Shown here one piece after another: positions 2,863-51,001 of a stretch of DNA of 64,000 nt (position 1 is the stretch's first letter; each line of letters begins with the position of its first letter). The stretch covers positions 9,302 through 73,301 of IMG/VR virus record IMGVR_UViG_3300050821_004020, one strand, 5' to 3'. Position numbers and translations under genes: made by a program. Under the pieces are notes generated by a model. That model worked only from the letters and a program-made list of their open reading frames with translations, searched no databases and was not told where the DNA came from. This DNA comes from a virus (taxonomy: Duplodnaviria; Caudoviricetes).

Positions 2863-3944
2863 GCTGCCTCTCTTTCTTCCTTGTTGTCCACGAATCCCAC
2901 AGTGAAGCCTTTCGAGCCTTCTTGGAATTCACCTTTGAAGTTTTTCTTCAACCTGGAGATTGTCTCTTCCAGGGGGATCTCCAAAACCAAGTACGTTGTG
3001 GCGATCTCTCTTAGATATGCTAACGAAAGACCGGACGTCTTGTCAAGTATCATATTTAGGTCAATCTCTGACAGTGCCGAGCCGCATACATTCCTCAGAT
3101 ACGCGGCGCGAGTAGCACGGGTAGCCGGGCTGATGCCGATTACCAAATCAAAGCGGCCTGGCCGGCGAATAAATCGATCTGCGATGGCCTTTGGTTTATT
3201 TGTCGTCGCAATATGCACCACCCCATTAATTTGATTCTCTCCATCATACAAAGATAATGCTGCGGTCTCACTCTTTGCGACGTTGGATCCGTTTGACCCC
3301 TCTAGATACGTTTCAATATCCTCTGTCACGGTCATCACGGGCCTTTCCGGCTCAATGCTTCGGAATTCTTTCAACCCCTTAATCAAGACATCATAGTCAT
3401 CATTAACGTAGACTACGCCGCCAAGGTCGATGATCTGCTTCTTTAGCAGGCTGACGATGCTGGACTTCCCGCAGCCCGCTGGCCCATAAAGCATGATACC
3501 GCGCTTCTGCAGAAAATTGTACTTCGCGTACACGTCTTTCTTTGACCAGAAGACCTTGATCTGATCCAAGATGTAATCCGTTGGGAGATCCGGGAGATCA
3601 ATTAATCCGTCCGTGACAGAGTTCTGCTTCCGGCTCCACAGGCGGTCGTTAGCGTCTTCCTCCAGCATGTACTCACCCGGTGGAATGCTTGGTACGGACT
3701 GCCCGATTGTAGCGAATGCAGTGCCCTTGGCGCCTACCTGCCACATCCCGACTTCAGTTTCTGGATTCATTTCGTCTTCTCCCTCATTCTTAATCCCGTG
3801 CTTTTCGTTGTACATTTTCTCTTCAGTCAAATACCACGATGCCTTCATATACCCGCGTAACACCTCGTTATCGATATGACTGTTTCTCTTTAAAAAGATA
3901 GTCCTGAAAGAAATCACCGACCCCCCTTGGAGCACCACAAACAC
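2859..3944 (-). CDS. AAA+ ATPase (true start uncertain, possibly 3917 or 3770)
   Basis: Walker A GPAGCGKS, Walker B variant VTEDIE, ATTN sensor, RRPGRFD arginine finger. Confidence 0.9.
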   Translation of the reverse strand: MFVVLQGGSVISFRTIFLKRNSHIDNEVLRGYMKASWYLTEEKMYNEKHGIKNEGEDEMNPETEVGMWQVGAKGTAFATIGQSVPSIPPGEYMLEEDANDRLWSRKQNSVTDGLIDLPDLPTDYILDQIKVFWSKKDVYAKYNFLQKRGIMLYGPAGCGKSSIVSLLKKQIIDLGGVVYVNDDYDVLIKGLKEFRSIEPERPVMTVTEDIETYLEGSNGSNVAKSETAALSLYDGENQINGVVHIATTNKPKAIADRFIRRPGRFDLVIGISPATRATRAAYLRNVCGSALSEIDLNMILDKTSGLSLAYLREIATTYLVLEIPLEETISRLKKNFKGEFQEGSKGFTVGFVDNKEEREAA

Positions 3945-5162: not shown

Positions 5163-5966
5163 TTACGATTTTCTCCACCTATTGCTCTGTCGAAGAATCT
5201 TCGCGGCGTATTCTTCCTGTCGTTTTTTATTTTCTTCTACAGGCAAAATAGCGAAGGCACCTTGTTTAGCTTCGAATTCTAAGAGCCTTTTGGCACCCCA
5301 CGTCTTTTCTTTTTTGAGTGCTTTTTGTGCTGCGTCTAGTCGAGACCAATCCTTCAAGAATATGAATCGCTTCTTTGGTATGTCGGGCGTAACTATGAGC
5401 CGCTCTCCGTATTTCGGTTTGACAATTTCGTACTTTGTGGTTCCAAACTCGTTAAAAAATCGTTTTCTGCTGACTCTTTTACCATCTAACCACCACGTTG
5501 AACCGTCTGGCTGTGCATCTTCTACTTGTAACCAATTTGCAGCTAGATAAGTATTTCCAGTATGGCCTACTTCGCGGTCGGCATAGGTGATAGCCGAATC
5601 AAAATTAGCAGTCTTGAAGAGCAGTCGCGTACTGTGAGCTAAAAGACTGCTCGTAGCCCATAGATGGCCGGGAATCCCGACCATGCGAACCAATTCAATC
5701 GGCTCAAAACCCGCTGCTCTCATTCTTTTTTGGACTGATATAGAACGAGGAACACCCCAAACAGTGCACCCCTCGTCGTGCCCGAAACATAATTGCGCCG
5801 TTCGTACCGCCCCCAAATAGTGGTGTTGAAGAAGTTCATTCGCTTTTTTCAAAGAAATAACTTCCACGCGGGGAGATTTTTGGAGCGAGAAGGTCGGAGT
5901 CGAACCGCCGTCACCGATTGGAATCGGTTGTTTTACCGTTAAACTATTCCCGCATAGCTCGCTCAT
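5163..5966 (-). CDS. Mom-like GNAT DNA-modification protein
   Basis: HHYLG, IELVRM, TSSLLA..., ITYAD..GHTGNTYLAANW match Mom-family motifs. Confidence 0.75.
   Translation of the reverse strand: MSELCGNSLTVKQPIPIGDGGSTPTFSLQKSPRVEVISLKKANELLQHHYLGAVRTAQLCFGHDEGCTVWGVPRSISVQKRMRAAGFEPIELVRMVGIPGHLWATSSLLAHSTRLLFKTANFDSAITYADREVGHTGNTYLAANWLQVEDAQPDGSTWWLDGKRVSRKRFFNEFGTTKYEIVKPKYGERLIVTPDIPKKRFIFLKDWSRLDAAQKALKKEKTWGAKRLLEFEAKQGAFAILPVEENKKRQEEYAAKILRQSNRWRKS
5881..5953 (-). ncRNA. tRNA-Gly-derived cloverleaf embedded in-frame in the 5' end of the Mom-like CDS
   Basis: GCGGGAA/TTCTCGC acceptor plus T-CCA, GTTT/AAAC D stem, ACCGA/TCGGT stem with 6-nt TTCCAA loop, TTCGACT T-loop. Confidence 0.8.
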
Positions 5967-6047
5967 CGTGGCATCTCCTGAGCGAGTGAACCCGCATCAA
6001 ACCAAGTCTTTCCGCCTTTCAACTGTTCGTAGGTAATTCGTGCGCCA

Positions 6048-6076
6048 GTTACTAAGTGCGCTCCTTCGGAAGTCAA
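6048..6076 (-). promoter_or_regulatory. putative sigma70 promoter of the Mom-like gene
   Basis: TTGACT-17-AGTAAC in an intergenic gap. Confidence 0.45.
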
Positions 6077-6122
6077 GTATATAATTCCCAAATAATCATG
6101 TCCAGATTCATCTGACATAATT

Positions 6123-7346: not shown

Positions 7347-7673
7347 TTAGAGAAGGTCGGCGTATGCGCCGAGTCGTACTAATCGCATAATTCCATCCTG
7401 ATGTCGCGGGCCATGTCCCGCGTCAAATGGGAGACTAACATGAACCATCTCGTGAAGTAGTATGGTTCTTGTTATCCGTCCATATCCCTTGTATCGCTTA
7501 TTGATAGTGATCGCAACGGGGTCCTCTGCCCAGAAATCCGTTGCACCACCTGATTTGCAAGGTAATTTCCCGTATTGAACGCTTATCTTTGGGAGCTTAT
7601 TTTTAAAGTACTTTCGGTTGTAATAGCGGTACAACTGTGCCAGAGTCGGTATCGTCCTCTTTCTCTTTCTCAT
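7347..7673 (-). CDS. SprT-like metalloprotease
   Basis: YNRKYF...LLHEMVH..GHG. Confidence 0.85.
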   Translation of the reverse strand: MRKRKRTIPTLAQLYRYYNRKYFKNKLPKISVQYGKLPCKSGGATDFWAEDPVAITINKRYKGYGRITRTILLHEMVHVSLPFDAGHGPRHQDGIMRLVRLGAYADLL

Positions 7674-7839: not shown

Positions 7840-10043
7840 GCCTCTACCGGTTCCTTTACTGCGTTGCCCATGTACTCGGACGCGATCTTTGCTAAATCAA
7901 ATTGAACCGGCTGCGGCCCGTAAGACAGGAACTGCACATCTGCCTGTGCGGGAGTCTTAACTACGCGGCCCCGGGCCATTGCATGCAGGAAGAAGAGATC
8001 GTATAGGTTCGTCTTCTTAATCTTCGTAAACGCCTTGCCCACCAGCACGATCTTCTCTTGCTGGTTCCGAATGTTCGAGCCTATTCTGGACGCGCCGCTA
8101 ACTTCGGAGTCAACCCAGATAACACGGCGTTCCTGTAAATCAATAATCATGGGCACGACCATGCTGGACTCTGATGTAACGTCAATCTTGTCTACGACTG
8201 TCTTAGGCTCAAAAATTTCTCCCGAGCCTGGCTCCTGACGTAGCATCCAACCAGCGAAGCACTCTGGGACCTGATGGAAGCCGTCCGGCCCGGCGTACTT
8301 GTTAACGGACATCACGATGTAGCGGGCGCCATATCCCAGGGCGGACGGAATATCAATGTCAATGAATTCCGCCGCGCCCTTTGGCGCATCCGTGATGTCG
8401 CCAGAATGAACGGCCTTGTAAGTAGCTTCACGGGCCCCGTAGTAATTCCGCAGGTTGCCGTACCACACGGAACCTTTGCTGTTCCAATCTGCGTCATACA
8501 TGGACGCAGACAGATCAAGATCGACGCGCCCGTTGCGATAGCCGTCATATTCATCATGATGGCCGGCACTTGTGTTCTTCCAATGGATGAAGAAGCGCAG
8601 GGTGTCCTTATCGCTGCCGAACGGAATCTGAGATCCACGCGTAACCGTGCGCAGACTGGCGGACGCCGAACGCTGGCTGAACGGCACTAAATAGTTCTTC
8701 AGTTCCGGGTCAATGTAAACCTTGCCCAGCTTCGGAAGCTGAGAGAAGCGCTGGCGCAGAGCATCCTCGGAGTAAACCACGATGCCGTTGATCAAGTCCG
8801 GATCAAGTGGCTGGCGGTCCTTTTCCTCGAGAAGCATAATCTTTGAGATGTTGCCCTTGGGCATGATGACACGGAAATTCTGCTTGTTCCTGTTCTCGAA
8901 ATGACTGATTACCTGCAGCAGGACGGGCGTAGAAACCTGGTCCGCAACTTCACGGAAGCGGTCAATGATCCCAATACCCACAGCGGGTGCATTCTCTGCC
9001 AACCGCAGAAGATGATCCAGCCGGCGAGCGAATTCACCGGGACGCTTCTGCAGCATTTCAACCGCTGACGTCACTAAGCCGGACGCCAGCCTGGACTCGA
9101 CTAATGAATTAAATGTATTCAAGCGACGGCCATTCCGCGCCGCATCAAATGCAGCACGCACAAACCGATAGCTGGGATTCTTAAATTCCTTGGGGTGCAA
9201 TCGTTCCCCCAGCCGCTTCATTCGCTCATAGTCGCGGGCGAAAGACTCATCCAGATTCTTATCCTGGGCGAGCATGTCCATCAGGCCACGGCGCACGTAC
9301 CTGGGGAAGGACTTGAACTTTGTGTTGTCCTTAAGGGACACGTCGCCGCCAGATAGAGCGGTCGCAAGACGCAACACGTCCGTGCCGGTCTTGAACCAGT
9401 CCAGCTGGACGGGCTCCTTTTTGTTGATCAACGCCGCCGCGTAAGTAACGAGGTTTTCCTTGTTAGGAATCACGACGTCCGCATCAAGACAGTAACCTGC
9501 TCCCACTAACGCAACCATATCTGCTTTGTCCGTAGCGGACAGAGACGTATTCGAGGTAACGAGCTGGTCTTGAAGCTCCCAGAAATCAAGGTCAGCCTTC
9601 ACTTCACCGATAGCCTTCAGAACAGTCAGTTTGACCTTTTCGGTCATGGGCTCCCTAGGAGACTTGCGATACGTCGGCAGCCAAATGTAATCTGGGTTGT
9701 GCGCGATGTCCGCGATCCACACGGAGAAATAGTGCATGATGGCGTTCAAATACAATTCGCCTTCAGCGGCCTCGGCCACTTGCTGGGGGAAGTTAGGATA
9801 CATTACGCGGAAAAAGCCCGAGCCTCGCGCAGCGGATAACAACGCTAAAACTTCCTGCATAACGGGCGCAGACTTAGATTGCTTTGTGCTCTTGAGTTTT
9901 TGGATGGAAGCAGCGGATAGCGTGTAACCAAGTCCTTGAAGATTCAAATTGAACGCGGCCACTGCGCCTGGGTTGGTGGTACCCGGGGCATCAGGCAGGA
10001 CGATATAGTTCTTACGACGAAGCAGAATTGAATTCACGGACAT
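7836..10043 (-). CDS. large helical (probably Ro/TROVE-related) protein fused to a C-terminal TerD domain
   Basis: C-terminal RFFIHW..VDLDLSA..SGDITDAP.GAAEFIDID is TerD-like; the N-terminal TROVE relationship is recalled family knowledge, not computed. Confidence 0.7.
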   Translation of the reverse strand: MSVNSILLRRKNYIVLPDAPGTTNPGAVAAFNLNLQGLGYTLSAASIQKLKSTKQSKSAPVMQEVLALLSAARGSGFFRVMYPNFPQQVAEAAEGELYLNAIMHYFSVWIADIAHNPDYIWLPTYRKSPREPMTEKVKLTVLKAIGEVKADLDFWELQDQLVTSNTSLSATDKADMVALVGAGYCLDADVVIPNKENLVTYAAALINKKEPVQLDWFKTGTDVLRLATALSGGDVSLKDNTKFKSFPRYVRRGLMDMLAQDKNLDESFARDYERMKRLGERLHPKEFKNPSYRFVRAAFDAARNGRRLNTFNSLVESRLASGLVTSAVEMLQKRPGEFARRLDHLLRLAENAPAVGIGIIDRFREVADQVSTPVLLQVISHFENRNKQNFRVIMPKGNISKIMLLEEKDRQPLDPDLINGIVVYSEDALRQRFSQLPKLGKVYIDPELKNYLVPFSQRSASASLRTVTRGSQIPFGSDKDTLRFFIHWKNTSAGHHDEYDGYRNGRVDLDLSASMYDADWNSKGSVWYGNLRNYYGAREATYKAVHSGDITDAPKGAAEFIDIDIPSALGYGARYIVMSVNKYAGPDGFHQVPECFAGWMLRQEPGSGEIFEPKTVVDKIDVTSESSMVVPMIIDLQERRVIWVDSEVSGASRIGSNIRNQQEKIVLVGKAFTKIKKTNLYDLFFLHAMARGRVVKTPAQADVQFLSYGPQPVQFDLAKIASEYMGNAVKEPVEA

Positions 10044-43067: not shown

Positions 43068-43141
43068 GTGAGCCTGATGTAGCGGGAGCATGGCAGCCTG
43101 TGACGCTGTCTGGCTGGGTTCGAATCCCAGGGCGCACCCCA
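43068..43141 (+). tRNA. tRNA-His(GTG)
   Basis: Cloverleaf, loop CTGTGAC, C73-CCA; -1 base is C. Confidence 0.85.
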
Positions 43142-43145
43142 ATTC

Positions 43146-43328
43146 TTGGCCTGGCCGGACGGCCAAAGAGTCACCATGTCAGAGGATGCTGACCGGTTGT
43201 TGCTATTAGTTGAAGCGGCAGAGAAGATAGATAATAATCTGAGCGTGCTTCCCGTAGCGATTCAACTGTTGTATGATGAGCAGTACAAGATGTTGATTCA
43301 AGAAATTGCCAAGAAGGCAAAGAATTAA
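43146..43328 (+). CDS. hypothetical protein
   Basis: ORF between tRNAs; likely start MSEDAD. Confidence 0.5.
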   Translation: MAWPDGQRVTMSEDADRLLLLVEAAEKIDNNLSVLPVAIQLLYDEQYKMLIQEIAKKAKN

Positions 43329-43335
43329 AGTTTTC

Positions 43336-43410
43336 GCCGCTCTAGCTCATTGGCAGAGCGCCGGCCTGAAAAACCGGGCGTACGTAGTTCGATTCTACGG
43401 TGCGGCGCCA
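43336..43410 (+). tRNA. tRNA-Phe(GAA)
   Basis: Cloverleaf, loop CTGAAAA, CCA. Confidence 0.9.
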
Positions 43411-43418
43411 AGATTAAT

Positions 43419-43505
43419 CGCCTGCTGATGGAATTGGCAGACATGCCGGATTCAAAATCCGGTGCCGTAAAACGCGTCAGGGTTCGAGTCCCTGGTGGGC
43501 GACCA
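43419..43505 (+). tRNA. tRNA-Leu(CAA)
   Basis: Loop TTCAAAA, long V-arm, CCA. Confidence 0.9.
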
Positions 43506-43513
43506 AAGTTTGA

Positions 43514-43639
43514 TCTTCCGATCACGGGCAGCCACCGTGTGAGACGTCCACTAAGGGCGAGGCTGGTTAAGTAAGGGGCCCCTGAACAATCAGAGGCTAG
43601 CCCTCGGGCGATCCAGCTGGGATGCGCTGGTGAGGAAGA
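43514..43639 (+). ncRNA. unassigned structured RNA between tRNAs
   Basis: TCTTCC-GA-TCA/TGA-GGAAGA closing stem with three internal arms. Confidence 0.5.
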
Positions 43640-43648
43640 CCGAATTTC

Positions 43649-43740
43649 TGTCGGGTACGACGGGATCGTGGCAGCGACTTATAATCGCTTCTGGCCCTGA
43701 TTAGGCTTGCTAGATGGTTCGATTCCATCCTCGACAACCA
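43649..43740 (+). tRNA. tRNA with TAT anticodon (nominal Ile) and long variable arm
   Basis: TGTCGGG/CTCGACA acceptor, AGCGA-CTTATAA-TCGCT, 23-nt V region, GATGG-TTCGATT-CCATC, ACCA. Confidence 0.85.
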
Positions 43741-43744
43741 GTTT

Positions 43745-43827
43745 GGGCTTGTGGCGAAACAGGCAAACGCGGCGGACTTAAAACCCGCTCCGAAAGGATG
43801 TCGGTTCGACCCCGACCTTGCCCACCA
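43745..43827 (+). tRNA. tRNA-Leu(TAA)
   Basis: Loop CTTAAAA, V-arm, CCA. Confidence 0.9.
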
Positions 43828-43837
43828 AAGTTTCAAT

Positions 43838-43914
43838 GCGCTGCGATTTCGAGCGGCAGAATACCTCCCTCTTAAGGAGGCTTGGTCTCAGTTCAAGTCT
43901 GAGGCGGCGCACCA
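43838..43914 (+). tRNA. tRNA-Lys(CTT)
   Basis: CCTCC-CTCTTAA-GGAGG, CCA. Confidence 0.85.
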
Positions 43915-43919
43915 AATTT

Positions 43920-43995
43920 GGGTTCGTAGCTTAATTGGCAGAGCCTCCGTCTTTTAAACGGAACTGTGTAGGATCATTGCCTACCGGACCCACCA
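43920..43995 (+). tRNA. tRNA-Lys(TTT)
   Basis: TCCGT-CTTTTAA-ACGGA; T-loop ATCATTG; CCA. Confidence 0.85.
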
Positions 43996-44004
43996 AATTT
44001 ATGT

Positions 44005-44094
44005 GGAAGTGCGGCGAAGACGGCGGGTCGTGCTTGTCTGTAAAACAAGATGCCCTTGCGGCACTAGCTGGTTCGAATCCAGCCGCTTCCACCA
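44005..44094 (+). tRNA. tRNA-Tyr(GTA)
   Basis: CTTGT-CTGTAAA-ACAAG, V-arm, CCA. Confidence 0.9.
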
Positions 44095-44098
44095 TTTT

Positions 44099-44173
44099 AG
44101 TCTACTGGCGCAACAGCAGCGCAGTCTCTTGATAGGAGAAAGGTTCCTAGTGCAAATCTAGGGTGGACTACCA
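44099..44173 (+). tRNA. tRNA-Ile(GAT)
   Basis: Loop TTGATAG; T-loop TGCAAAT; CCA. Confidence 0.8.
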
Positions 44174-44185
44174 ATTTTACACCGT

Positions 44186-44261
44186 GGGGCTGTAGCTCAT
44201 TCAGGAGAGCGCATCGCTTGCACCGATGAGGCGTCCGGAGCAAAGCCGGATAGCTCCACCA
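44186..44261 (+). tRNA. tRNA-Ala(TGC)
   Basis: CATCG-CTTGCAC-CGATG; G3:U70; T-loop AGCAAAG; CCA. Confidence 0.9.
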
Positions 44262-44269
44262 ATTTCTGT

Positions 44270-44345
44270 TCCCGACTAGCAAACTGGTCGTATGCATCTC
44301 GCTTACACCGAGACAGGGAGTGTTCGATTCACTCGTTGGGAACCA
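44270..44345 (+). tRNA. tRNA-Val(TAC)
   Basis: TCTCG-CTTACAC-CGAGA, CCA. Confidence 0.9.
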
Positions 44346-44346
44346 C

Positions 44347-44422
44347 GGGGTGTTCGTATATCGGAACATTACGCGGCGCTACGAACGCCGAAAGCAGAGT
44401 CCAATTCTCTGACGCCCCTCCA
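44347..44422 (+). tRNA. tRNA-Arg(ACG)
   Basis: CGGCG-CTACGAA-CGCCG; T-loop TCCAATT; CCA. Confidence 0.85.
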
Positions 44423-44490
44423 ATTTTCGTGTGTCACTGTAAACTATCGGCCTGTAGGTGAGCATAGGCGTCCGAGCACGAATACATTTT

Positions 44491-44565
44491 GGCCCTGTCG
44501 TTCAGCGCACAGGACTCTGGTCTTCGAAACCAGCAACGTCGGTTGGAATCCGACTGGGGCCTCCA
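44491..44565 (+). tRNA. tRNA-Arg(TCG)
   Basis: CTGGT-CTTCGAA-ACCAG; T-loop TTGGAAT; CCA. Confidence 0.85.
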
Positions 44566-44615
44566 AATTTACCGGGATTACAACCGGGTAGCGAACGTTT
44601 TCGGACGTAAACCGA

Positions 44616-45041
44616 ATGGCTGGTGCTTTGCCGTTAGCCGCATCCTTTAAAAAGGAGCGACTGATGATTAAAGAAACACAACTGGGTATGCCATTTGGAA
44701 CGGCGTGCCATCAACTAAGAAAGGAAATTCTTTTTGAGTTGGTAAGAGAAGTAAAAAGAAATTTTTGTTTTAGGTGCGGCAAACAAATTGAGCTTAGTCG
44801 AGATTTTTCGATTGATCATAAAGAGCCTTGGTTACACAGTTTTGAACCAAAAGTTTTGTTTTTCTCTTTGACGAATATTGCCTTTAGCCACAGGCTATGC
44901 AATACGAAGGCCCGTCGAATTAGAAGAAAGTATTCGCCCAAAGAAGCGATACGAGTTGAGCGAGAGCAGAAAGCCGCATACATGAGGAAAATGTATACGA
45001 CCGAGCGCCGCCAATTAAAGTATCGAGCTACTGGGCACTGA
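44616..45041 (+). CDS. HNH endonuclease within the tRNA array
   Basis: CFRCG..SIDHKEPW..FSHRLCN. Confidence 0.8.
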   Translation: MAGALPLAASFKKERLMIKETQLGMPFGTACHQLRKEILFELVREVKRNFCFRCGKQIELSRDFSIDHKEPWLHSFEPKVLFFSLTNIAFSHRLCNTKARRIRRKYSPKEAIRVEREQKAAYMRKMYTTERRQLKYRATGH

Positions 45042-45048
45042 ATTCAGT

Positions 45049-45124
45049 TTCGCTCTGGTCTAACTGGCAGGACACTTCACTGTTAATGAAGAGGGTCTCC
45101 GTTCGAATCGGAGGGGCGGAGCCA
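45049..45124 (+). tRNA. tRNA-Asn(GTT)
   Basis: CTTCA-CTGTTAA-TGAAG, GCCA. Confidence 0.9.
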
Positions 45125-45131
45125 ATTTCGA

Positions 45132-45205
45132 GCAGTGATGATCTAGTGGTATGATGACGCACTTGTAATGCGTACGCCGGGGTCCGATTCCCTGTCGCTG
45201 CTCCA
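45132..45205 (+). tRNA. tRNA-Thr(TGT)
   Basis: ACGCA-CTTGTAA-TGCGT, CCA. Confidence 0.9.
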
Positions 45206-45206
45206 A

Positions 45207-45280
45207 GCACTGTTGATCTAGTGGTATGATGCCGCTTTCGTAAAGCGGACGCCGGGGTCCGATTCCCTGACGGTGCTCCA
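45207..45280 (+). tRNA. tRNA-Thr(CGT)
   Basis: CCGCT-TTCGTAA-AGCGG, CCA. Confidence 0.9.
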
Positions 45281-45285
45281 GTTTT

Positions 45286-45362
45286 GAGGTGGTCGCGTAG
45301 CGGCCTATCGCACTCCACTGTCTATGGAGTTTTCGTGGGTTCGAATCCCATCCGCCTCGCCA
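45286..45362 (+). tRNA. tRNA-Asp(GTC)
   Basis: CTCCA-CTGTCTA-TGGAG, GCCA. Confidence 0.9.
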
Positions 45363-45370
45363 TTTTTCGA

Positions 45371-45444
45371 GCACTCGTAGTTTAGTGGTAGAACACGCCC
45401 TTGGTAAGGGCGGGGTTAGGGTCCGATTCCCTGCAGGTGCTCCA
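45371..45444 (+). tRNA. tRNA-Thr(GGT)
   Basis: CGCCC-TTGGTAA-GGGCG, CCA. Confidence 0.9.
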
Positions 45445-45446
45445 GT

Positions 45447-45520
45447 GCCCATGTAGTCTAGTGGTAGAACGCAGCCCTCTCACGGCTGTAGCGTCGGTTC
45501 GATTCCGGCCACGGGTACCA
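45447..45520 (+). tRNA. tRNA-Glu(CTC)
   Basis: CAGCC-CTCTCAC-GGCTG, CCA. Confidence 0.9.
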
Positions 45521-45527
45521 ATTCTGT

Positions 45528-45603
45528 GGCGATGTCATCTAGTGGCCTAGGATGCTTCCCTTTCAAGGAAGTCACGCGGGTTCGAGTCCCGCCGACGCTA
45601 CCA
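45528..45603 (+). tRNA. tRNA-Glu(TTC)
   Basis: CTTCC-CTTTCAA-GGAAG, CCA. Confidence 0.9.
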
Positions 45604-45754
45604 TATTCTGAAAGTTGTCTGTTGGATACCCCACCGTACGGTGCAGTACATTAACATCGGTGTTAAAAAGACTTGCAAAGGCCAAAATGGATTGGTATAA
45701 GGATTCAGCAGTTGAGCAGTTAAATCCCATCCCTACCAAAGAGGAGAGGCCAAC

Positions 45755-45970
45755 GTGAAGAATCCGGTCCAGCAAGCAGGTATGAAAGAGTTGAAGCTGT
45801 CCTTTGATGCTCGTATTGATGATTTGCATTTGCAGGTCGGAGATTTCGTCAAAGTAGCGGATCAAGTATATAAATTTGTTGGTCGTGAATTGGGCGCTAG
45901 GGATCAATTCGGGAAACTCATTCCAGGTTTGAACCATAAGTATTACGATGTTCTCGAGCCAATCAATTAA
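45755..45970 (+). CDS. hypothetical protein
   Basis: SD GAGGAG; ORF between tRNAs. Confidence 0.6.
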   Translation: MKNPVQQAGMKELKLSFDARIDDLHLQVGDFVKVADQVYKFVGRELGARDQFGKLIPGLNHKYYDVLEPIN

Positions 45971-45979
45971 GTTCATTAT

Positions 45980-46064
45980 GCCCCGTTGGCGAAACTGGGA
46001 AACGCGCAGAGCTTAGACCTCTGTGCCTTCGGGCTTGGAGGTTCGACTCCTCTATGGGGCACCA
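45980..46064 (+). tRNA. tRNA-Leu(TAG)
   Basis: CAGAG-CTTAGAC-CTCTG, V-arm, CCA. Confidence 0.9.
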
Positions 46065-46087
46065 TTTTGTACGTACATCGGTTGGGC

Positions 46088-46432
46088 GTGCCGCAATCAC
46101 GCCCGACCACTCTATTGCGGAGAGAAAGGGTGAGAGAAGGGAAGGCTTATGAGCGTGTTCGTGGCGCTCACAAACGATTGGTTGTGAACCGTTGGAAAAG
46201 AAGAAAGGGCTGCGTTGATTGCGGCTACAAAGCCAATTACGACGCGCTAGAGTTAGATCACCTCTTCGGAAAGAAAGGCAATTATCGTACTGTTGCTTCT
46301 CTGATGTACGCGAGCTGGAGAGTGATCAAAGAAGAGATTGTAAAATGCGAAGTTGTTTGTGCGAACTGCCATGCAATTCGAACTCGGTTAAGAGAGAAAA
46401 TTTCATTGCGGGCACGGCTGGTGCCGGGCTAA
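46088..46432 (+). CDS. HNH endonuclease within the tRNA array
   Basis: GCVDCGY..LELDH..KCEVVCANCH. Confidence 0.85.
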   Translation: MPQSRPTTLLRRERVREGKAYERVRGAHKRLVVNRWKRRKGCVDCGYKANYDALELDHLFGKKGNYRTVASLMYASWRVIKEEIVKCEVVCANCHAIRTRLREKISLRARLVPG

Positions 46433-46479
46433 GCCTCATAAACTTTGGCGTCATGATTCGATTTCATGGCCCGCAACCA
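46407..46479 (+). tRNA. atypical tRNA with CAT anticodon (Met or Ile2)
   Basis: TGCGGGC/GCCCGCA acceptor, ACCA, loop CTCATAA, 4-nt D-loop, extended anticodon stem. Confidence 0.7.
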
Positions 46480-46493
46480 TTTTTAGGAGTCGC

Positions 46494-46694
46494 ATGGATC
46501 TTAAGTCGATACCATATTCAATAGCAAAGGTTGCCCGTGATCAAATGGCAGCCGGCACAAAGGCGGCAAAAGGTGGGGATGATGATAAAGCCGCGCCAGA
46601 GCCTGCTAAGAAACAGGAAAATCCTGCGGATAAGTCAACTGATGCTGTTAGTGGTCTAGTTAAGACTGTCGCAAGCCATTTTATGCCGAGTTAA
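46494..46694 (+). CDS. hypothetical protein
   Basis: SD AGGAG. Confidence 0.6.
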   Translation: MDLKSIPYSIAKVARDQMAAGTKAAKGGDDDKAAPEPAKKQENPADKSTDAVSGLVKTVASHFMPS

Positions 46695-46738
46695 AACTCT
46701 AGGGCCCGTTTCCAGGCCCCACAGTTAGGCTAACTCCG

Positions 46739-47179
46739 TTACTTTCGTTTTCGGTCGAGGACGCTGGCAGTTTCCTTGTCAACTACGTACAGATGGCCGG
46801 TCTTGCCGTTTTCACCATTCTGTCCGACGATCAAGCTGAATTTTTCAGTCAGCCCGAGCTTGTGAAACTGATAGCGAATTCTTGCTGTCATTTGTCCGGC
46901 GTCCAACACATTGTTCCACGGGTCAACGGTTGGGATGATGTCGATGTCCACGGCTTCAAAACTGCCGAGACCGGCATTGAGCTTTTCCATTAATGCGGAC
47001 CAGAAGGGGAGCCCCAAAATGAAAGCTTCCCGTCCAGCGCGAACTGGCGACGGAACATCTGTCCTCTTGACGATTTTGATTGCTGGTCCCCGGTCAGTTG
47101 TGTAATCCGGGCCGTATGTTGCGTTGATTTTTGTTGCAGTCGCTGACATTCTTTTCTCCTTTTGTGTTGCGGTTGCCAT
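46739..47179 (-). CDS. hypothetical protein antisense to the tRNA array
   Basis: 146-aa ORF with SD (AAGGAAG or AAGGAG) in a tRNA-free gap. Confidence 0.7.
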   Translation of the reverse strand: MATATQKEKRMSATATKINATYGPDYTTDRGPAIKIVKRTDVPSPVRAGREAFILGLPFWSALMEKLNAGLGSFEAVDIDIIPTVDPWNNVLDAGQMTARIRYQFHKLGLTEKFSLIVGQNGENGKTGHLYVVDKETASVLDRKRK

Positions 47180-47460
47180 TTTGGTTTCTTCCTTTCAGTG
47201 GCTGAGTTGATCTAGTTTATCTGAGTGTTAGAGGAAGCCCTGGGCTTTTTAGACTGCACTCTGGATTAAACGTCCACGGTACTAATTCTGGAGTTTAACC
47301 CAAAGCGGTTCAATACTCCAAACACTGTACGTCGGTTCATAGTACCTCTAGTCCTTAGTTTCTGGCTTTGTACGCTTTCGTACCGGCCATGTGTGTACCG
47401 TACAGAGTATTAGATGCCAAATCTGTGCTAAACAGCACACTTTTGGAATAAAGTTTTCGA

Positions 47461-47534
47461 GCGATGTTGGTATAGTGGTAGAACGACACCTTGCCAAGGT
47501 GTAGGCGCGGTTTCGATTACCGCACGTCGCTCCA
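47461..47534 (+). tRNA. tRNA-Gly(GCC)
   Basis: ACACC-TTGCCAA-GGTGT, TCCA. Confidence 0.9.
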
Positions 47535-47536
47535 GT

Positions 47537-47650
47537 TTGTCCGGTAGCTCAGATGGTTAGAGCGCGATCAGCAAGCCCGCTCATTCAGGTCATTCCTGAA
47601 TTGCAAGGCCCAAGTGGTCGAGGTCACGGGTTCGAATCCCGTCCGGCAAA
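47537..47650 (+). ncRNA. tRNA-like RNA with a 44-nt insertion replacing the anticodon loop, no CCA
   Basis: Canonical D arm TAGCTCAGATGGTTAGAGC, CGATCA/TGGTCG stem, AGGTC, ACGGG-TTCGAAT-CCCGT. Confidence 0.8.
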
Positions 47651-47662
47651 ATTCGGTGGTCT

Positions 47663-47920
47663 ATGACATACGAAGCCCTCGTGATCACGTTGGGGTTTGT
47701 AGTGGACTTGATCGCATTGTATTTTTTGGTCGGTATCTGGCGTGATGACAGGCTCATGCGGATAGCGGCAGAAGAATCCCTTAAGGCTCAGCTTGAGTAT
47801 TTGGGCTTGCGCCGTAAATGGTACGAGCAGCGCTCCGCAGCCAAGAGGAAGAGCGATGTGGGAAGACCAGGAACAGAAGCAGCTGGAACACAGGATGGCG
47901 ATAGTGCGAACGCTGTGTAA
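47663..47920 (+). CDS. small membrane protein
   Basis: N-terminal TM; ORF track. Confidence 0.6.
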   Translation: MTYEALVITLGFVVDLIALYFLVGIWRDDRLMRIAAEESLKAQLEYLGLRRKWYEQRSAAKRKSDVGRPGTEAAGTQDGDSANAV

Positions 47921-47984
47921 CATTGCCGGCGTCATTATAAGCCTCTTCTACGTTCTCTGGCAAATGAAGTTGATACGATTTTAA

Positions 47985-48058
47985 GCGGTGTTGATGTAAC
48001 GGTAGCATCGCAGTTTTCCAAACTGCTCGTCTCGGTTCGAATCCGTGACGCCGCTCCA
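47985..48058 (+). tRNA. tRNA-Gly(TCC)
   Basis: GCAGT-TTTCCAA-ACTGC, TCCA. Confidence 0.9.
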
Positions 48059-48082
48059 GTTTAATCCTCGAAGAGAGGTACG

Positions 48083-48388
48083 ATGCACGAAAGAATAGAG
48101 CGGCTTAGAAATCACGCACATTTTTTGGTCGGATATCGTCAAGAATTAGAGGAGGTACTTATGGCATTCGCAGACAGCATTGCAAAGTTGCAAGCGGACG
48201 TAGCAACACTTATCGCAGAGAACGGTCCCGCAGCGGTAACGGCGGCAGTAACGGCAGCCGTGGCAGCCAAGGACGCGTCAGACGCAGCGGCAGTTGACGC
48301 AGTGGACGCAACGGTAGCAGCAGCTCTGCCGGCAGCACCAGCCCCGGCGGCTCCAGCAGCACCGGCCCCAGCAACACCAGCGGCGTAA
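48083..48388 (+). CDS. Ala/Pro-rich protein (probable start 48161)
   Basis: SD GAGGAGG before MAFADS. Confidence 0.7.
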   Translation: MHERIERLRNHAHFLVGYRQELEEVLMAFADSIAKLQADVATLIAENGPAAVTAAVTAAVAAKDASDAAAVDAVDATVAAALPAAPAPAAPAAPAPATPAA

Positions 48389-48443
48389 GGTTTTTCTAGA
48401 ATACCCGGAGATCCGTGGCGGGTTATCCACGGTCAAAGTTTAT

Positions 48444-48518
48444 ATGAGAGTCGTCTAGAGGCTAGGACGGCGGACTCCAAACCCGCCTACGGTGGTTCGA
48501 CTCCATCCTCTCATGCCA
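48444..48518 (+). tRNA. tRNA-Trp(CCA)
   Basis: Loop CTCCAAA, GCCA. Confidence 0.9.
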
Positions 48519-48620
48519 ATTTAGTGGGGGGCTTATGAAGACTCATAAGTTTTTCACAGCGGTTCTGTATTTTGGTTTGACGATGATGTTGCTCGTGAGC
48601 CGGTATAAGCGATTTAAATT

Positions 48621-48917
48621 ATGACACTACCCTCTTGGTTGAGCTGGCTGACCGACAATTCCTGGATGAACAATCCAGACGTGCTTGCGCAGTTCGGTCA
48701 TGCGGGGATCCCTTATGGCGCCCTGTTGACGATGGATAAGTTTCATTCGCATTTGTTTTACCCAATCGGTCTAGGCGTAATAGCGTACGCCGCAGTTAAA
48801 GAATTTTGGTATGACGCGAACTATGAAACGCCCAAGCAGAGCTTCAAGGACAATATGACGGATTTCAGTTTTTATTGCCTTGGAGTCGGCCTGGCGTTCC
48901 TAGTTCACAATCTCTAA
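48621..48917 (+). CDS. membrane protein
   Basis: Hydrophobic segments; ORF track. Confidence 0.65.
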   Translation: MTLPSWLSWLTDNSWMNNPDVLAQFGHAGIPYGALLTMDKFHSHLFYPIGLGVIAYAAVKEFWYDANYETPKQSFKDNMTDFSFYCLGVGLAFLVHNL

Positions 48918-48925
48918 GTTTCAGT

Positions 48926-49000
48926 GGATCTATCTTTCAATGGATAGGAAGTCCGCCTTCTAAGCGGATAATCCAGGTTCGAGTCCTGGTGGGTCTACCA
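48926..49000 (+). tRNA. tRNA-Arg(TCT)
   Basis: TCCGC-CTTCTAA-GCGGA, CCA. Confidence 0.9.
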
Positions 49001-49004
49001 ATTT

Positions 49005-49080
49005 GGCTCTGTCGTTCAAATGGACAGGACGCGAATTTCCTAAATTCGTCATCGCGGTTCGACTCCGCGTGGGGCCTCCA
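49005..49080 (+). tRNA. tRNA-Arg(CCT)
   Basis: CGAAT-TTCCTAA-ATTCG, CCA. Confidence 0.9.
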
Positions 49081-49126
49081 GTTCTAGCTTAACGCCGAGT
49101 AGGGGACCAATTGGGCGGCGCGTGAC

Positions 49127-49510
49127 TTGCATGGTGCTCTACCACAGAGTGCAAGTGGGTTCAGCCCGATGCACATTCGTGTTCCGCGTTGGCAGTTGTT
49201 GGCTATTCCTTCGTTGGCGTTCGCAGTGGGCTTCACGATGAACGCGTTCGTTATGGCCATGAATAACGGTCAGATGCCTGTGTTGTTCCCGGGCGGAGAC
49301 CAGTCTGGGTATACTCAAGACACCATTCATTGCGCGATGACGATGGCAACGCACTTTAGATTTCTCGCGGATTGGATCAACATTCGCGGAGTTGGTATCG
49401 CCAGTCCCGGCGATTTCTTGGAGTGGTTCTCGGATCAAACAACTTGGCCTGGAATTTGGGCTTGGTTCGCGCTGATAGTCAATGACCACATCAAAAAGGA
49501 AAGGCAATGA
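49127..49510 (+). CDS. DUF5317-like membrane protein
   Basis: MN..VMAMNNGQMPV..FLADWI..ASPGDFL. Confidence 0.7.
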   Translation: MHGALPQSASGFSPMHIRVPRWQLLAIPSLAFAVGFTMNAFVMAMNNGQMPVLFPGGDQSGYTQDTIHCAMTMATHFRFLADWINIRGVGIASPGDFLEWFSDQTTWPGIWAWFALIVNDHIKKERQ

Positions 49511-49947
49511 AAGGTGTAATTTTAGCTGGACTGCTCGCCTTGGTTATGGTAGGCTGTAACATCGTTACGAAGTCAAACGACTACGGCGTATACAATATTG
49601 GGGTTTGTGGTGATGAAGCATTCATGGCGTCGAACGTAGACGTTGAAAAGGACACCTTCACCATTCTCGCGTCAGAGATGGCGCCAGGTCAAGCAAAGGC
49701 GCAAAGCAATAAGCCGATAGTATTTAAGTTTTCCAAGGTCGTAGACGGTAAGCGCGTTTACATTCTGGTCATAAATGGCCATGAAGACGAGATCGCGGTA
49801 ACCGCGCAGAACGGCGTAGTATCAGGAACGTTCTCCGTGAACAATAAAGAGCTGGCGGTCATTCATGGCGCCAAGGGTTCTTTGGATAAGATTGATGAAG
49901 TTGGTCAAGCAGAGGCGCAGTCTTGCTACGACCGAAACAATAGGTAA
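49507..49947 (+). CDS. lipoprotein
   Basis: Signal peptide with lipobox MVGC. Confidence 0.75.
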   Translation: MKGVILAGLLALVMVGCNIVTKSNDYGVYNIGVCGDEAFMASNVDVEKDTFTILASEMAPGQAKAQSNKPIVFKFSKVVDGKRVYILVINGHEDEIAVTAQNGVVSGTFSVNNKELAVIHGAKGSLDKIDEVGQAEAQSCYDRNNR

Positions 49948-49952
49948 GGATT

Positions 49953-50230
49953 TAGGTGGACTGGATCATCGCGGGCGCAAGCCTGAGGAACTTCAGGACA
50001 TCACTATACACAGCACCGTGGAAGTTGCGGGCCGGGTAACCGGACGGGTAAGGCCATCTTGCGGAGAATAGCCAGTCTAATCTACGCACATTCAAGGGTG
50101 GGCACTCCATGCTGGATGCAATCTCAAATAGGGCTGGAGCGCGTATAGCGTTATGATAGCCGGGTTGAGAGCTTAGACGGATGATGGTCGGGTCGCAAGG
50201 CTTACTAAATCCTGGGTATAGGTTCACCTA
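49953..50230 (+). ncRNA. rnpB: RNase P RNA, compact type-A-like, P18 absent and S-domain reduced
   Basis: P1, P2, P3, P4 with bulged U, P5-P9, P15-P17 and P19 all pair; GAGGAA (CR-I), CAA..AAATAG, GGU and ACTAAATCCTGGGTATA (CR-V) sit in register. Confidence 0.85.
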
Positions 50231-50240
50231 ATAATTTTAA

Positions 50241-50326
50241 GGAACGGTGCCGAAACGGTAGCCGGACTGGTTTGCTAAACCAGCGAGTGAAAGCTCGTGG
50301 AGGTTCGAATCCTCCTCGTTCCGCCA
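50241..50326 (+). tRNA. tRNA-Ser(GCT)
   Basis: CTGGT-TTGCTAA-ACCAG, V-arm, GCCA. Confidence 0.9.
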
Positions 50327-50387
50327 TTTGAATTTACGGGAACCCCGAGATAGCTACCCGGGGCCGTGAACCCGGTTGCAAACGGGC

Positions 50388-50465
50388 GACGATGTAGCTC
50401 AGTGGCAGAGCACAACCACTTAAGTGTGATTGAGGCCGTCGGTTCGAATCCGACTATCGTCTACA
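50388..50465 (+). ncRNA. tRNA-like RNA with aberrant 20-nt anticodon arm, no CCA
   Basis: GACGATG/TATCGTC acceptor, canonical D and T arms, 3' end TACA. Confidence 0.7.
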
Positions 50466-50471
50466 AATTTT

Positions 50472-50558
50472 GGATTAATGCGGTCCATGGGGGCCAGCGG
50501 TCTTGAAAACCGTGCCGGGTGTAAGCCCGAGTGGGTTCGATTCCTACTTAATCCGCCA
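50472..50558 (+). tRNA. tRNA-Ser(TGA)
   Basis: GCGGT-CTTGAAA-ACCGT, V-arm, GCCA. Confidence 0.85.
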
Positions 50559-50595
50559 GCCGGTCTCTTACGGGTAAAGCCGGGAGCCGGCGCCA
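50559..50595 (+). ncRNA. minihelix ending in G-CCA
   Basis: GCCGG-T-CTCT/GGAG-CCGGC plus CGG/CCG, then GCCA. Confidence 0.5.
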
Positions 50596-50600
50596 AGTTT

Positions 50601-50676
50601 CTCTGAGTGGCCAAGTGTTAAAGGCAGAGATCTGCAAAATCTCAAATCGTGGGTTAAAATCCCACCTCGGAGTCCA
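50601..50676 (+). tRNA. tRNA-Cys(GCA)
   Basis: GAGAT-CTGCAAA-ATCTC, U73-CCA. Confidence 0.9.
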
Positions 50677-50677
50677 T

Positions 50678-50753
50678 TGAGATGTCGTCCAACCCGGCAG
50701 GACAACGGTCTTTGAAACCGTGAATTCTGGTTCGAATCCAGACGCCTCATCCA
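50678..50753 (+). tRNA. tRNA-Gln(TTG)
   Basis: ACGGT-CTTTGAA-ACCGT, CCA. Confidence 0.9.
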
Positions 50754-50760
50754 AATTTAT

Positions 50761-50835
50761 TGCGATGTCATTCAATCGGTAGGATGACGCTCTCTGAAAG
50801 CGTTCATAGTGGTTCGAGTCCACTCGCCGCAACCA
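50761..50835 (+). tRNA. tRNA-Gln(CTG)
   Basis: ACGCT-CTCTGAA-AGCGT, CCA. Confidence 0.9.
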
Positions 50836-50842
50836 ATTTAAT

Positions 50843-50921
50843 CGGAAAATAGGGGAGCCTGGCTTATCCCGCTCGCTTTGGAAGCGAGAGCACGTTGGTT
50901 CGAATCCAACTTTTCCGACCA
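50843..50921 (+). tRNA. tRNA-Pro(TGG)
   Basis: CTCGC-TTTGGAA-GCGAG, CCA. Confidence 0.9.
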
Positions 50922-50922
50922 T

Positions 50923-51001
50923 CGAGAAATAGGAGAGTCTGGCTTATTCCGCCCGGTTCGGAACCGGGAGCACGTTGGTTCAAATCCAACTTTCTCGACC
51001 A
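50923..51001 (+). tRNA. tRNA-Pro(CGG)
   Basis: CCCGG-TTCGGAA-CCGGG, CCA. Confidence 0.9.

Follow-up and report, generated by a model that had tools for sequence, protein, structure and literature searches.

The 64,000-nt window analysed here (virus record IMGVR_UViG_3300050821_004020, positions 9,302 to 73,301; Duplodnaviria, Caudoviricetes) comes from a tRNA-rich soil phage. On its minus strand it contains an open reading frame (ORF) of 267 amino acids (5163..5966), belonging to the Mom family of GNAT-fold enzymes (Pfam PF25680, PHROG 1384), and, embedded in the first part of this frame, a tRNA-Gly-like cloverleaf of 73 nt (5881..5953). The Pfam Mom profile was matched with 36.8 bits (cut-off 27.1) by residues 33–204 (5355..5870), starting from profile position 3; thus, the cloverleaf sits exactly N-terminal of the enzyme domain. 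PHROG 1384 was matched with an E-value of 1.8e-12, and a profile of the window protein matched the structure of the phage Mu Mom (PDB 8bv8, E 1.5e-7). Two residues invariant in the clade, R94 in the motif ELxRM and S106, aligned to the arginine of Mu ELNRM and to the alanine found 13 residues on in the Mu S124A crystal chain, respectively, a spacing equal to that of the essential R111 and S124, with the numbering offset inferred.

The ATG of the Mom-like ORF (5964..5966) overlaps the stop codon of the upstream ORF (ATGA) and is preceded, at 8 nt, by the Shine-Dalgarno-like AGGAG (5975..5979). The A of this ATG is 13 nt before G1, the first nucleotide of the cloverleaf, which therefore occupies nt 14–86 of the ORF and is read in frame as residues 5–29, CGNSLTVKQPIPIGDGGSTPTFSLQ, as the preliminary description of this DNA had reported. 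The sole alternative start past the cloverleaf, an in-frame GTG (V34, 5865..5867), has no Shine-Dalgarno sequence and is not conserved in the relatives described below, many of which, L002, L013, L016, L018, L019 and L020 included, have no in-frame start between the CCA end and the Mom domain. Therefore, translation must begin before or inside the element, and the cloverleaf region is very probably translated, as a passenger peptide. When the element is at the 5′ side of the gene, the start codon of the relatives is at −13 or −10 from G1, or at +14, as an ATG in the D loop; several of the +14 ATGs are 7 nt past a GGAGG, which is the acceptor 5′ strand itself, and have an in-frame stop just upstream. 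A promoter-like sequence (TGGACA-17-TATACT, 10/12), observed at 6076–6104 (minus strand), lies inside a 57-amino-acid ORF, some 110 nt ahead of the Mom ATG; taken overall, the promoter and terminator sites found in the window were fewer than in shuffled sequences and do not exceed chance.

On direct reading, the cloverleaf follows the order GCGGGAA/TA/D arm/A/anticodon arm/GAC/T arm/TTCTCGC/T/CCA. The acceptor stem (5947–5953 pairing with 5885–5891) has 7 bp, one of them G-U, and is followed by the discriminator U73 (5884) and by an encoded CCA end (5881–5883). The D arm is GTTT-AACGGTA-AAAC; the anticodon-arm hairpin ACCGA-TTCCAA-TCGGT (5913..5928) has 16 nt instead of 17, with a loop of 6 nt in which CC is kept, and the T arm GGCGG-TTCGACT-CCG(A)CC (5892..5909) has a bulged A at 5894. 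The shortened loop, the bulge and the T-CCA end are all as first described. A tRNA competent for decoding has a 5-bp anticodon stem, a 7-nt loop and a 3-nt anticodon; with its 6-nt loop the window cloverleaf is, as far as can be read from its letters, a non-decoding form and not a working decoder. In agreement with this, ARAGORN reported at 5881..5953 (minus strand) a tRNA-??? with the two-base “anticodon” cc, which means a 6-nt loop.

The Rfam tRNA model (RF00005) matched 5885..5953 (minus strand) with 30.5 bits, just above its gathering score of 29, whereas the 32 ordinary tRNAs of the window scored 42–60 bits with the same model. With R1, a covariance model that we built from 30 elements of this kind, the cloverleaf scored 72.7 bits (E about 6e-19), and the runners-up in the window were the ordinary tRNA-Gly(UCC), with 53.6 bits, and tRNA-Gly(GCC), with 51.0 bits. 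The folding energy was not significant, neither for the cloverleaf alone (z −1.26) nor in its context (z −1.36); it is the comparison with relatives, and not the folding energy, that places the structure beyond chance.

Relatives of the element and their linkage to Mom-like genes

No useful match to the locus was obtained by blastn or tblastn in 50,697 phage records, and no cultured phage alike was found. Among the sequencing runs listed for the locus all are DNA metagenomes, and none is of RNA. A blastn search for a cultured example with two of the elements returned only ordinary tRNA-Gly genes of Streptomyces phages, together with the Ralstonia phage RsoM2USA; the tRNAs of the latter scored 43.8 bits with R1 and have no GCG...U73, hence they are ordinary and outside the element family. 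A protein search with the window Mom-like protein gave 30 homologues, 14 of which start with a tRNA-derived peptide (...C(G/A)GS...GGS(I/T/N/S)PT..LQKSP), while more distant homologues start with M..Y(K)NSGL.KSP instead. A pattern comprising the bulged T arm and the 3′ end, GGTTCRANTCCGACNNNNNCGCTCCAA, was then found in at least 119 IMG/VR contigs. Among 185,579 prokaryote species, represented by one genome each, the pattern with the bulged T arm occurred in 16 contigs; it is therefore no feature of ordinary tRNA-Gly genes. An exact-pattern scan of IMG/VR with the window's own anticodon arm gave no matches.

The analysed set consists of 119 distinct element variants, the window included. Part of the T arm and the ..CGC-T-CCA-A end were prescribed by the pattern with which most of them were gathered; in these sequences the conservation of the T arm and of the 3′ end is therefore by construction. 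No such bias affects the 14 elements obtained from the protein search, nearly all of which have the bulged T stem.

One comparison is with the homologue P0030, at locus L010, whose enzyme body is only 32% identical to that of the window, while the N-terminus is almost the same. A 95-nt block including the ATG, the 13-nt leader and the element (5881–5972 in the window, 318–413 in L010) is 83–97% identical, and the flanks are at random level, which suggests that an ATG-leader-element module may have been exchanged between Mom genes. Between the two elements there are 7 differences, and three compensatory stem pairs account for 6 of them. Four of the pattern sites (L085, L114, L131 and L133) have only the T arm and the acceptor 3′ strand followed by U-CCA, with no matching 5′ half; they are possibly truncated copies or recombination remnants.

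A hidden Markov model was built from the Mom domain alone of this clade and run on the loci of the 119 elements. A same-strand Mom-like ORF was found at 108 of them, an opposite-strand one at none. The element is at the 5′ side of the ORF in 73 variants, in 70 of these within the stop-to-stop ORF, and at the 3′ side in the others, where it is either read through by the ORF (26 variants) or placed just past its stop codon (9 variants). All three frames are used by the read-through ORFs where they cross the element (14, 7 and 5 cases); the frame of the window, in the same register, is open through 109/119 elements. The clade-built model found no Mom-like ORF next to the remaining 11 elements, 3 of which are within 300 nt of a contig end. 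Two of the 11 were checked in Pfam: one was unassigned and the other, in L079 (383–459, with 382 nt upstream on the contig), is fused in frame to a VRR-NUC nuclease ORF (E 3.5e-13).

These arrangements bear on what the preliminary description had proposed as the reason for the element, namely that cleavage by RNase P at its 5′ end would separate the start codon from the enzyme body. As 35 of the 108 linked copies are at the 3′ side, where cleavage cannot separate the start codon from the enzyme, a start-codon switch fails as a general explanation; the loss of the start codon upon processing is plausible as a local side effect in the window, as we infer from its layout.

The elements may also occur more than once at a locus. 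In L002, two tandem Mom paralogues of 206 and 203 amino acids have their own elements (3002–3074 and 3627–3698), and it is within the second element that the first gene terminates and the second one starts, at a D-loop ATG. In L094 two elements only 4 nt apart (1953–2027 and 2032–2106) lie in tandem downstream of one Mom-like gene; the same tandem arrangement was observed in L111 and L139.

Selection on the RNA and glycine identity

The base pairing was analysed in 98 sequences aligned to R1, an alignment that is itself fitted to the model. Standard pairs were found in 97.6% of the cells and 18 of the 22 pairs vary on both sides, with a covariation score of 0.672, against 0.184 in shuffled alignments and about 0.1 when the partners were slid by 1–3 columns. 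Moreover, G-U pairs are common and occur on this strand only, which assigns the structure to the RNA of this strand. All this indicates, at the level of sequence comparison, that selection acts on the cloverleaf as RNA. The covariation check had been set beforehand, with the keeping of the peptide but not of the pairing as the outcome that would speak against a role of the structure; the homologues show the opposite, as the pairing is kept and the peptide is not.

The same data bear on whether the cloverleaf is a decaying tRNA gene or a recombination scar, carried in an open frame with no present function. Such an origin would agree with an Rfam score barely over the threshold, with the folding energy of the isolated cloverleaf and with the half-elements described above; nevertheless, the strong covariation, the three compensatory pairs that distinguish the window from L010 and the conserved association, on either side, with Mom genes that are very divergent make it a very improbable explanation. 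The covariation also ruled out that the full elements are remnants of an attachment site; the Dehalococcoides islands discussed below integrate at ssrA and not here.

A functional N-terminal extension, CGNSL...GGSTPTFSLQ, with an incidental RNA fold would have in its favour that the frame is open in the same register in nearly all variants and that GGS(I/T)PT recurs in homologues. However, this motif is the T arm read in that frame, the encoded peptide varies wherever the stems covary, and the copies at the 3′ side are either crossed by the ORF in any of the three frames or placed beyond it. In the AlphaFold2 model, computed from an alignment of 22 homologues, residues 1–30 have a predicted local distance difference test score (pLDDT) of 39–53 and no secondary structure, while the rest of the protein is mostly above 90, being lower only in the C-terminal tail, and Mu Mom tolerates the removal of 10 N-terminal residues (PMC13219725). 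The peptide of residues 5–29 is not selected, since the 3′-side copies use all three frames and the model is unstructured here, and we find a peptide function hardly credible. A structured RNA gene overlapping a protein frame that remains open in 109 of 119 variants is an unusually clear example of dual coding.

The features conserved in the RNA include those of glycine identity. The determinants of the bacterial α2β2 glycyl-tRNA synthetase (GlyRS) are G1-C72, C2-G71, C35, C36 and U73, with a purine at position 4 and a pyrimidine at position 69 being preferred (PMC10464925). G1-C72, C2-G71 and G3-C70 are invariant in the 98 model-aligned sequences; position 4 is mostly a purine and position 69 mostly a pyrimidine across the family, and CC in the loop of the anticodon arm is present in 113/119 variants. 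In the 14 protein-derived elements the 5′ GCG and U73 are always present, and CCA is found in 13. GG in the D loop (105/119 variants) and GGTTCRA in the T loop are kept as well. The window cloverleaf has the whole bacterial set on direct reading (G1-C, C2-G, G4-U, U73 and the loop CC).

The anticodon arm, by contrast, is canonical, with 17 nt, in just 30 of the 119 variants. ARAGORN, run on 120 sequences, assigned a type to 21 of them (20 Gly and 1 Trp), gave 6- or 8-nt loops for 36 and made no call for 63. As judged by these comparisons, the family ranges from a near-normal tRNA-Gly(UCC) to forms that are unable to decode. The first description as a tRNA-Gly derivative that keeps its elbow and acceptor without decoding agrees well with the 6-nt loop, with the GlyRS marks and with the ordinary tRNA-Gly genes being the next-best matches of R1.

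The retention of the acceptor end and elbow but not of the anticodon loop, together with the tight linkage to Mom, could also be expected of a decoy or inhibitor RNA. Such an RNA would donate no glycine but would bind, in its charged or uncharged form, to Mom or to factors of the host (EF-Tu or tRNA-cutting defence nucleases, for instance), and so limit the toxicity of Mom or absorb an attack by the host. Nothing in the elements is specific to inhibition, and the whole GlyRS identity set, the loop CC included, fits charging better than binding; we regard a decoy as improbable.

Possible roles of the cloverleaf

The chemistry of the Mu enzyme offers a link between this RNA and the gene around it. 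Mu Mom, which has a GNAT fold, transfers glycine from Gly-tRNAGly to the N6 of adenine in double-stranded DNA, and the product then rearranges; it accepts all three tRNA-Gly isoacceptors of E. coli, does not use Gly-tRNAAla, and probably recognizes the tRNA at its acceptor end (Silva et al., Nat Commun 2026, preprint 2023; PMC13219725). Because Mom uses Gly-tRNAGly, and because the element is linked to Mom-like genes, is selected as RNA and keeps the glycine identity marks, the explanation that we favour, if only moderately, is that the cloverleaf is a dedicated, non-translating glycine carrier for the Mom-like enzyme encoded around it. The family membership of the enzyme, the linkage, the RNA-level selection and the identity marks are observations; the excision of the RNA, its charging, its use by the enzyme and its exclusion from EF-Tu and the ribosome are our proposal.

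According to this proposal, the mRNA region would fold into a tRNA-like shape, RNase P would cut at 5953, and 3′ trimming would proceed to the encoded CCA at 5881. The excised RNA would be charged by GlyRS through G1-C72, C2-G71, purine 4-pyrimidine 69, U73 and the loop CC, and would pass its glycine to Mom for the modification of DNA at N6 of adenine, while its 6-nt anticodon loop and the bulge in its T stem would bar it from the ribosome. With the start codon 13 nt upstream, each transcript would be either translated or processed, never both, and the peptide of residues 5–29 would be a passenger.

The shape of the cloverleaf appears compatible with a substrate of bacterial RNase P, and the phage may have an RNase P of its own. 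An RNase P RNA-like gene of the bacterial type A, compact in size (282 nt), was found at 49953..50234 (plus strand), where RF00010 was covered over the whole model with 95.7 bits (E 6.7e-28), below the gathering score of 100 bits. This RNA is a candidate for the processing of the cloverleaf 5′ end, as judged from its similarity to the model; a phage-borne RNase P RNA would be unusual. Thus, the part of the preliminary description that invoked the phage's own RNase P RNA holds as to the presence of such a gene, and not as to its role as the reason for the element.

The RNase P RNA-like gene sits inside a cluster of 33 tRNAs (43068–51001, plus strand), covering most amino acids, in which CCA is encoded at least in the tRNA-Gly(UCC). 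Two ordinary tRNA-Gly genes identified by ARAGORN and Rfam are part of the window, a tRNA-Gly(UCC) with a 7-nt loop and encoded U73-CCA (47985..48058, plus strand) and a tRNA-Gly(GCC) (47461..47534, plus strand).

Several points weigh against a glycine carrier. The excision of the element destroys the 5′ end of the enzyme's own mRNA; the phage already has the two ordinary tRNA-Gly genes just described, and Mu Mom needs no private tRNA. The contact of GlyRS with C35 and C36 may be weaker in a 6-nt loop, and the bulge in the T stem, a region that GlyRS also contacts, may be an obstacle to this enzyme or to RNase P (PMC10464925). Furthermore, the conservation of the T arm and 3′ end must be discounted, as said above, for the pattern-collected sequences. 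A pure trans-acting carrier would not require that each of the L002 paralogues has its own element, which hints, from the gene arrangement, at a role in cis or at matched pairs, and the tight clustering of the 5′-side starts seems to go beyond mere packing.

The last two observations are what would be expected if the element regulated the gene in cis, the folded cloverleaf at the ribosome-binding site either blocking initiation or recruiting RNase P, GlyRS or Mom, so that the output of Mom would be tied to the status of tRNA processing or of tRNA-Gly, as in the tRNA-mimic operators of thrS. In several relatives the Shine-Dalgarno sequence and the ATG at +14 are built into the acceptor strand and the D loop, where folding would hide both of them. 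Since the starts are clustered, the initiation signals of these relatives are part of the element and one element accompanies each L002 paralogue, the position of the element relative to the ribosome-binding site does not seem accidental; the layout of the sequences suggests as much.

In the window, moreover, the leader GAGCGAG (5958..5964) is complementary to CTCGCTC (5883–5889, comprising part of the acceptor 3′ strand, U73 and C74) and could form an alternative helix. The minimum free energy structure of the 140-nt context uses this 7-nt helix, so that the leader and the Shine-Dalgarno sequence are paired to the 3′ strand and to the trailer. The block shared with L010 extends over the ATG and the 13-nt leader, and the window has its RNase P RNA-like gene. 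Mu mom itself is toxic and translationally controlled (Hattman 1999, as cited in PMC13219725). On the other hand, 35 of the 108 linked copies are at the 3′ side, 9 of them past the stop codon, where they are unable to gate initiation; the leader-acceptor complementarity is no family trait, being found only in the window and in L010 (mean run 3.43, against 3.43 in permuted sequences), and an operator needs neither an exact U73-CCA end nor the loop CC. As the reason for the element we consider regulation in cis rather unlikely; it does not exclude a glycine carrier, with which it is compatible as a secondary effect.

The two roles could also be two fates of one Mom mRNA. As long as ribosomes load at the ATG 13 nt ahead of the element or, in relatives, at the initiation signals within its acceptor strand and D loop, the cloverleaf would be kept unfolded and the enzyme would be produced; when translation stops, the RNA would fold, be excised, possibly by the phage's own RNase P RNA, and serve as the carrier consumed by the enzyme. 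The gene would yield first the enzyme and then its co-substrate, in a self-limiting way. We put this forward tentatively, as a doubtful scheme.

A few other features were observed in the window. At 50388–50462 (plus strand) there is a tRNA with an 8-nt anticodon loop, for which ARAGORN gives the “anticodon” taag and Rfam 51.6 bits with the tRNA model, possibly of a quadruplet or frameshift type. A match of 112 nt to the tRNA model with a long insert (47538–47649, plus strand; 36.1 bits) directly follows the tRNA-Gly(GCC). The sequence at 50472–50558 (plus strand), a tRNA-Ser(tga) for ARAGORN, was assigned by Rfam preferentially to tRNA-Sec (47.2 bits, with a gathering score of 47), and is probably an ordinary tRNA-Ser with a long arm. 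Finally, translation of 7347–7673 (minus strand) gives a 108-amino-acid ORF in which the HExxH motif LLHEMVHV can be read; its product may be a small SprT-like metalloprotease.

Comparison with known systems

The physical feature has been known since 2011. In the ssrA islands of Dehalococcoides, a conserved 76-bp tRNA-Gly-like locus was described within the initial 150 bp of a gene homologous to mom, and the same mom-embedded locus was also found in a marine fosmid; annotation pipelines usually call it “pseudo-tRNA”, and the authors gave it no function (McMurdie 2011, PMC3146451). The window element, which also lies inside the first 150 bp of its ORF, is a further case, in a soil phage. The two share a conserved tRNA-Gly-like cloverleaf in the 5′ coding region of a Mom homologue and a conserved 3′ end, and the covariance-model family of the window element includes a locus of a Dehalococcoidales metagenome-assembled genome (L142). 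The Dehalococcoides locus, however, was reported from one bacterial island family, whereas the element described here is in a tRNA-rich phage and has 73 nt with a 6-nt loop; unlike in that report, its family also includes 3′-side, post-stop and tandem arrangements.

Phage Mu has an enzyme of the same family, which needs the glycine-charged tRNA-Gly as donor (PMC13219725); Mu, differently from the phage studied here, has no tRNA of its own and uses that of the host. The glycine source of Mom was settled only between 2023 and 2026; as late as 2021, the donor was taken to be an acyl-CoA by the group of Aravind. In the published work, phages are assumed to scavenge the tRNA-Gly of the host. The terms “tRNA-like” and “cloverleaf” do not occur in the text of PMC13219725, and our literature search found no paper tying the mom-embedded tRNA-like element to the tRNA-dependent chemistry of Mom.

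Regulatory RNAs offer the closest parallel to a role in cis, as a tRNA-shaped or tRNA-binding RNA by the start codon could gate translation. The thrS operator and the T-box, which are always located in 5′ leaders, imitate or bind no more than parts of a tRNA, whereas the Mom element comprises the complete cloverleaf, CCA included, and can lie at the 5′ or at the 3′ end of the gene.

For a glycine carrier, the precedent is the non-proteinogenic tRNA-Gly of staphylococci, which feeds the Fem peptidyltransferases (Stewart, Roberts and Strominger 1971; Roberts 1972; cited as refs 55 and 56 in PMC13219725). Both would be glycine tRNAs reserved for an aminoacyl transferase with a GNAT fold and kept off translation, if the carrier explanation is true. 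The staphylococcal tRNAs have a normal 7-nt UCC anticodon loop and free-standing genes, whereas the window element has a malformed loop and a bulged T stem, is located inside the ORF of the enzyme, and would have DNA as its target. If so, it would be the second natural tRNA reserved for a non-ribosomal GNAT transferase after that of the staphylococcal Fem system, and the first for DNA modification; it would account for the “pseudo-tRNA” label, unexplained since 2011, and would provide a simple annotation marker for active Mom-type modification systems as well as an orthogonal tRNA-enzyme pair for DNA-labelling tools.

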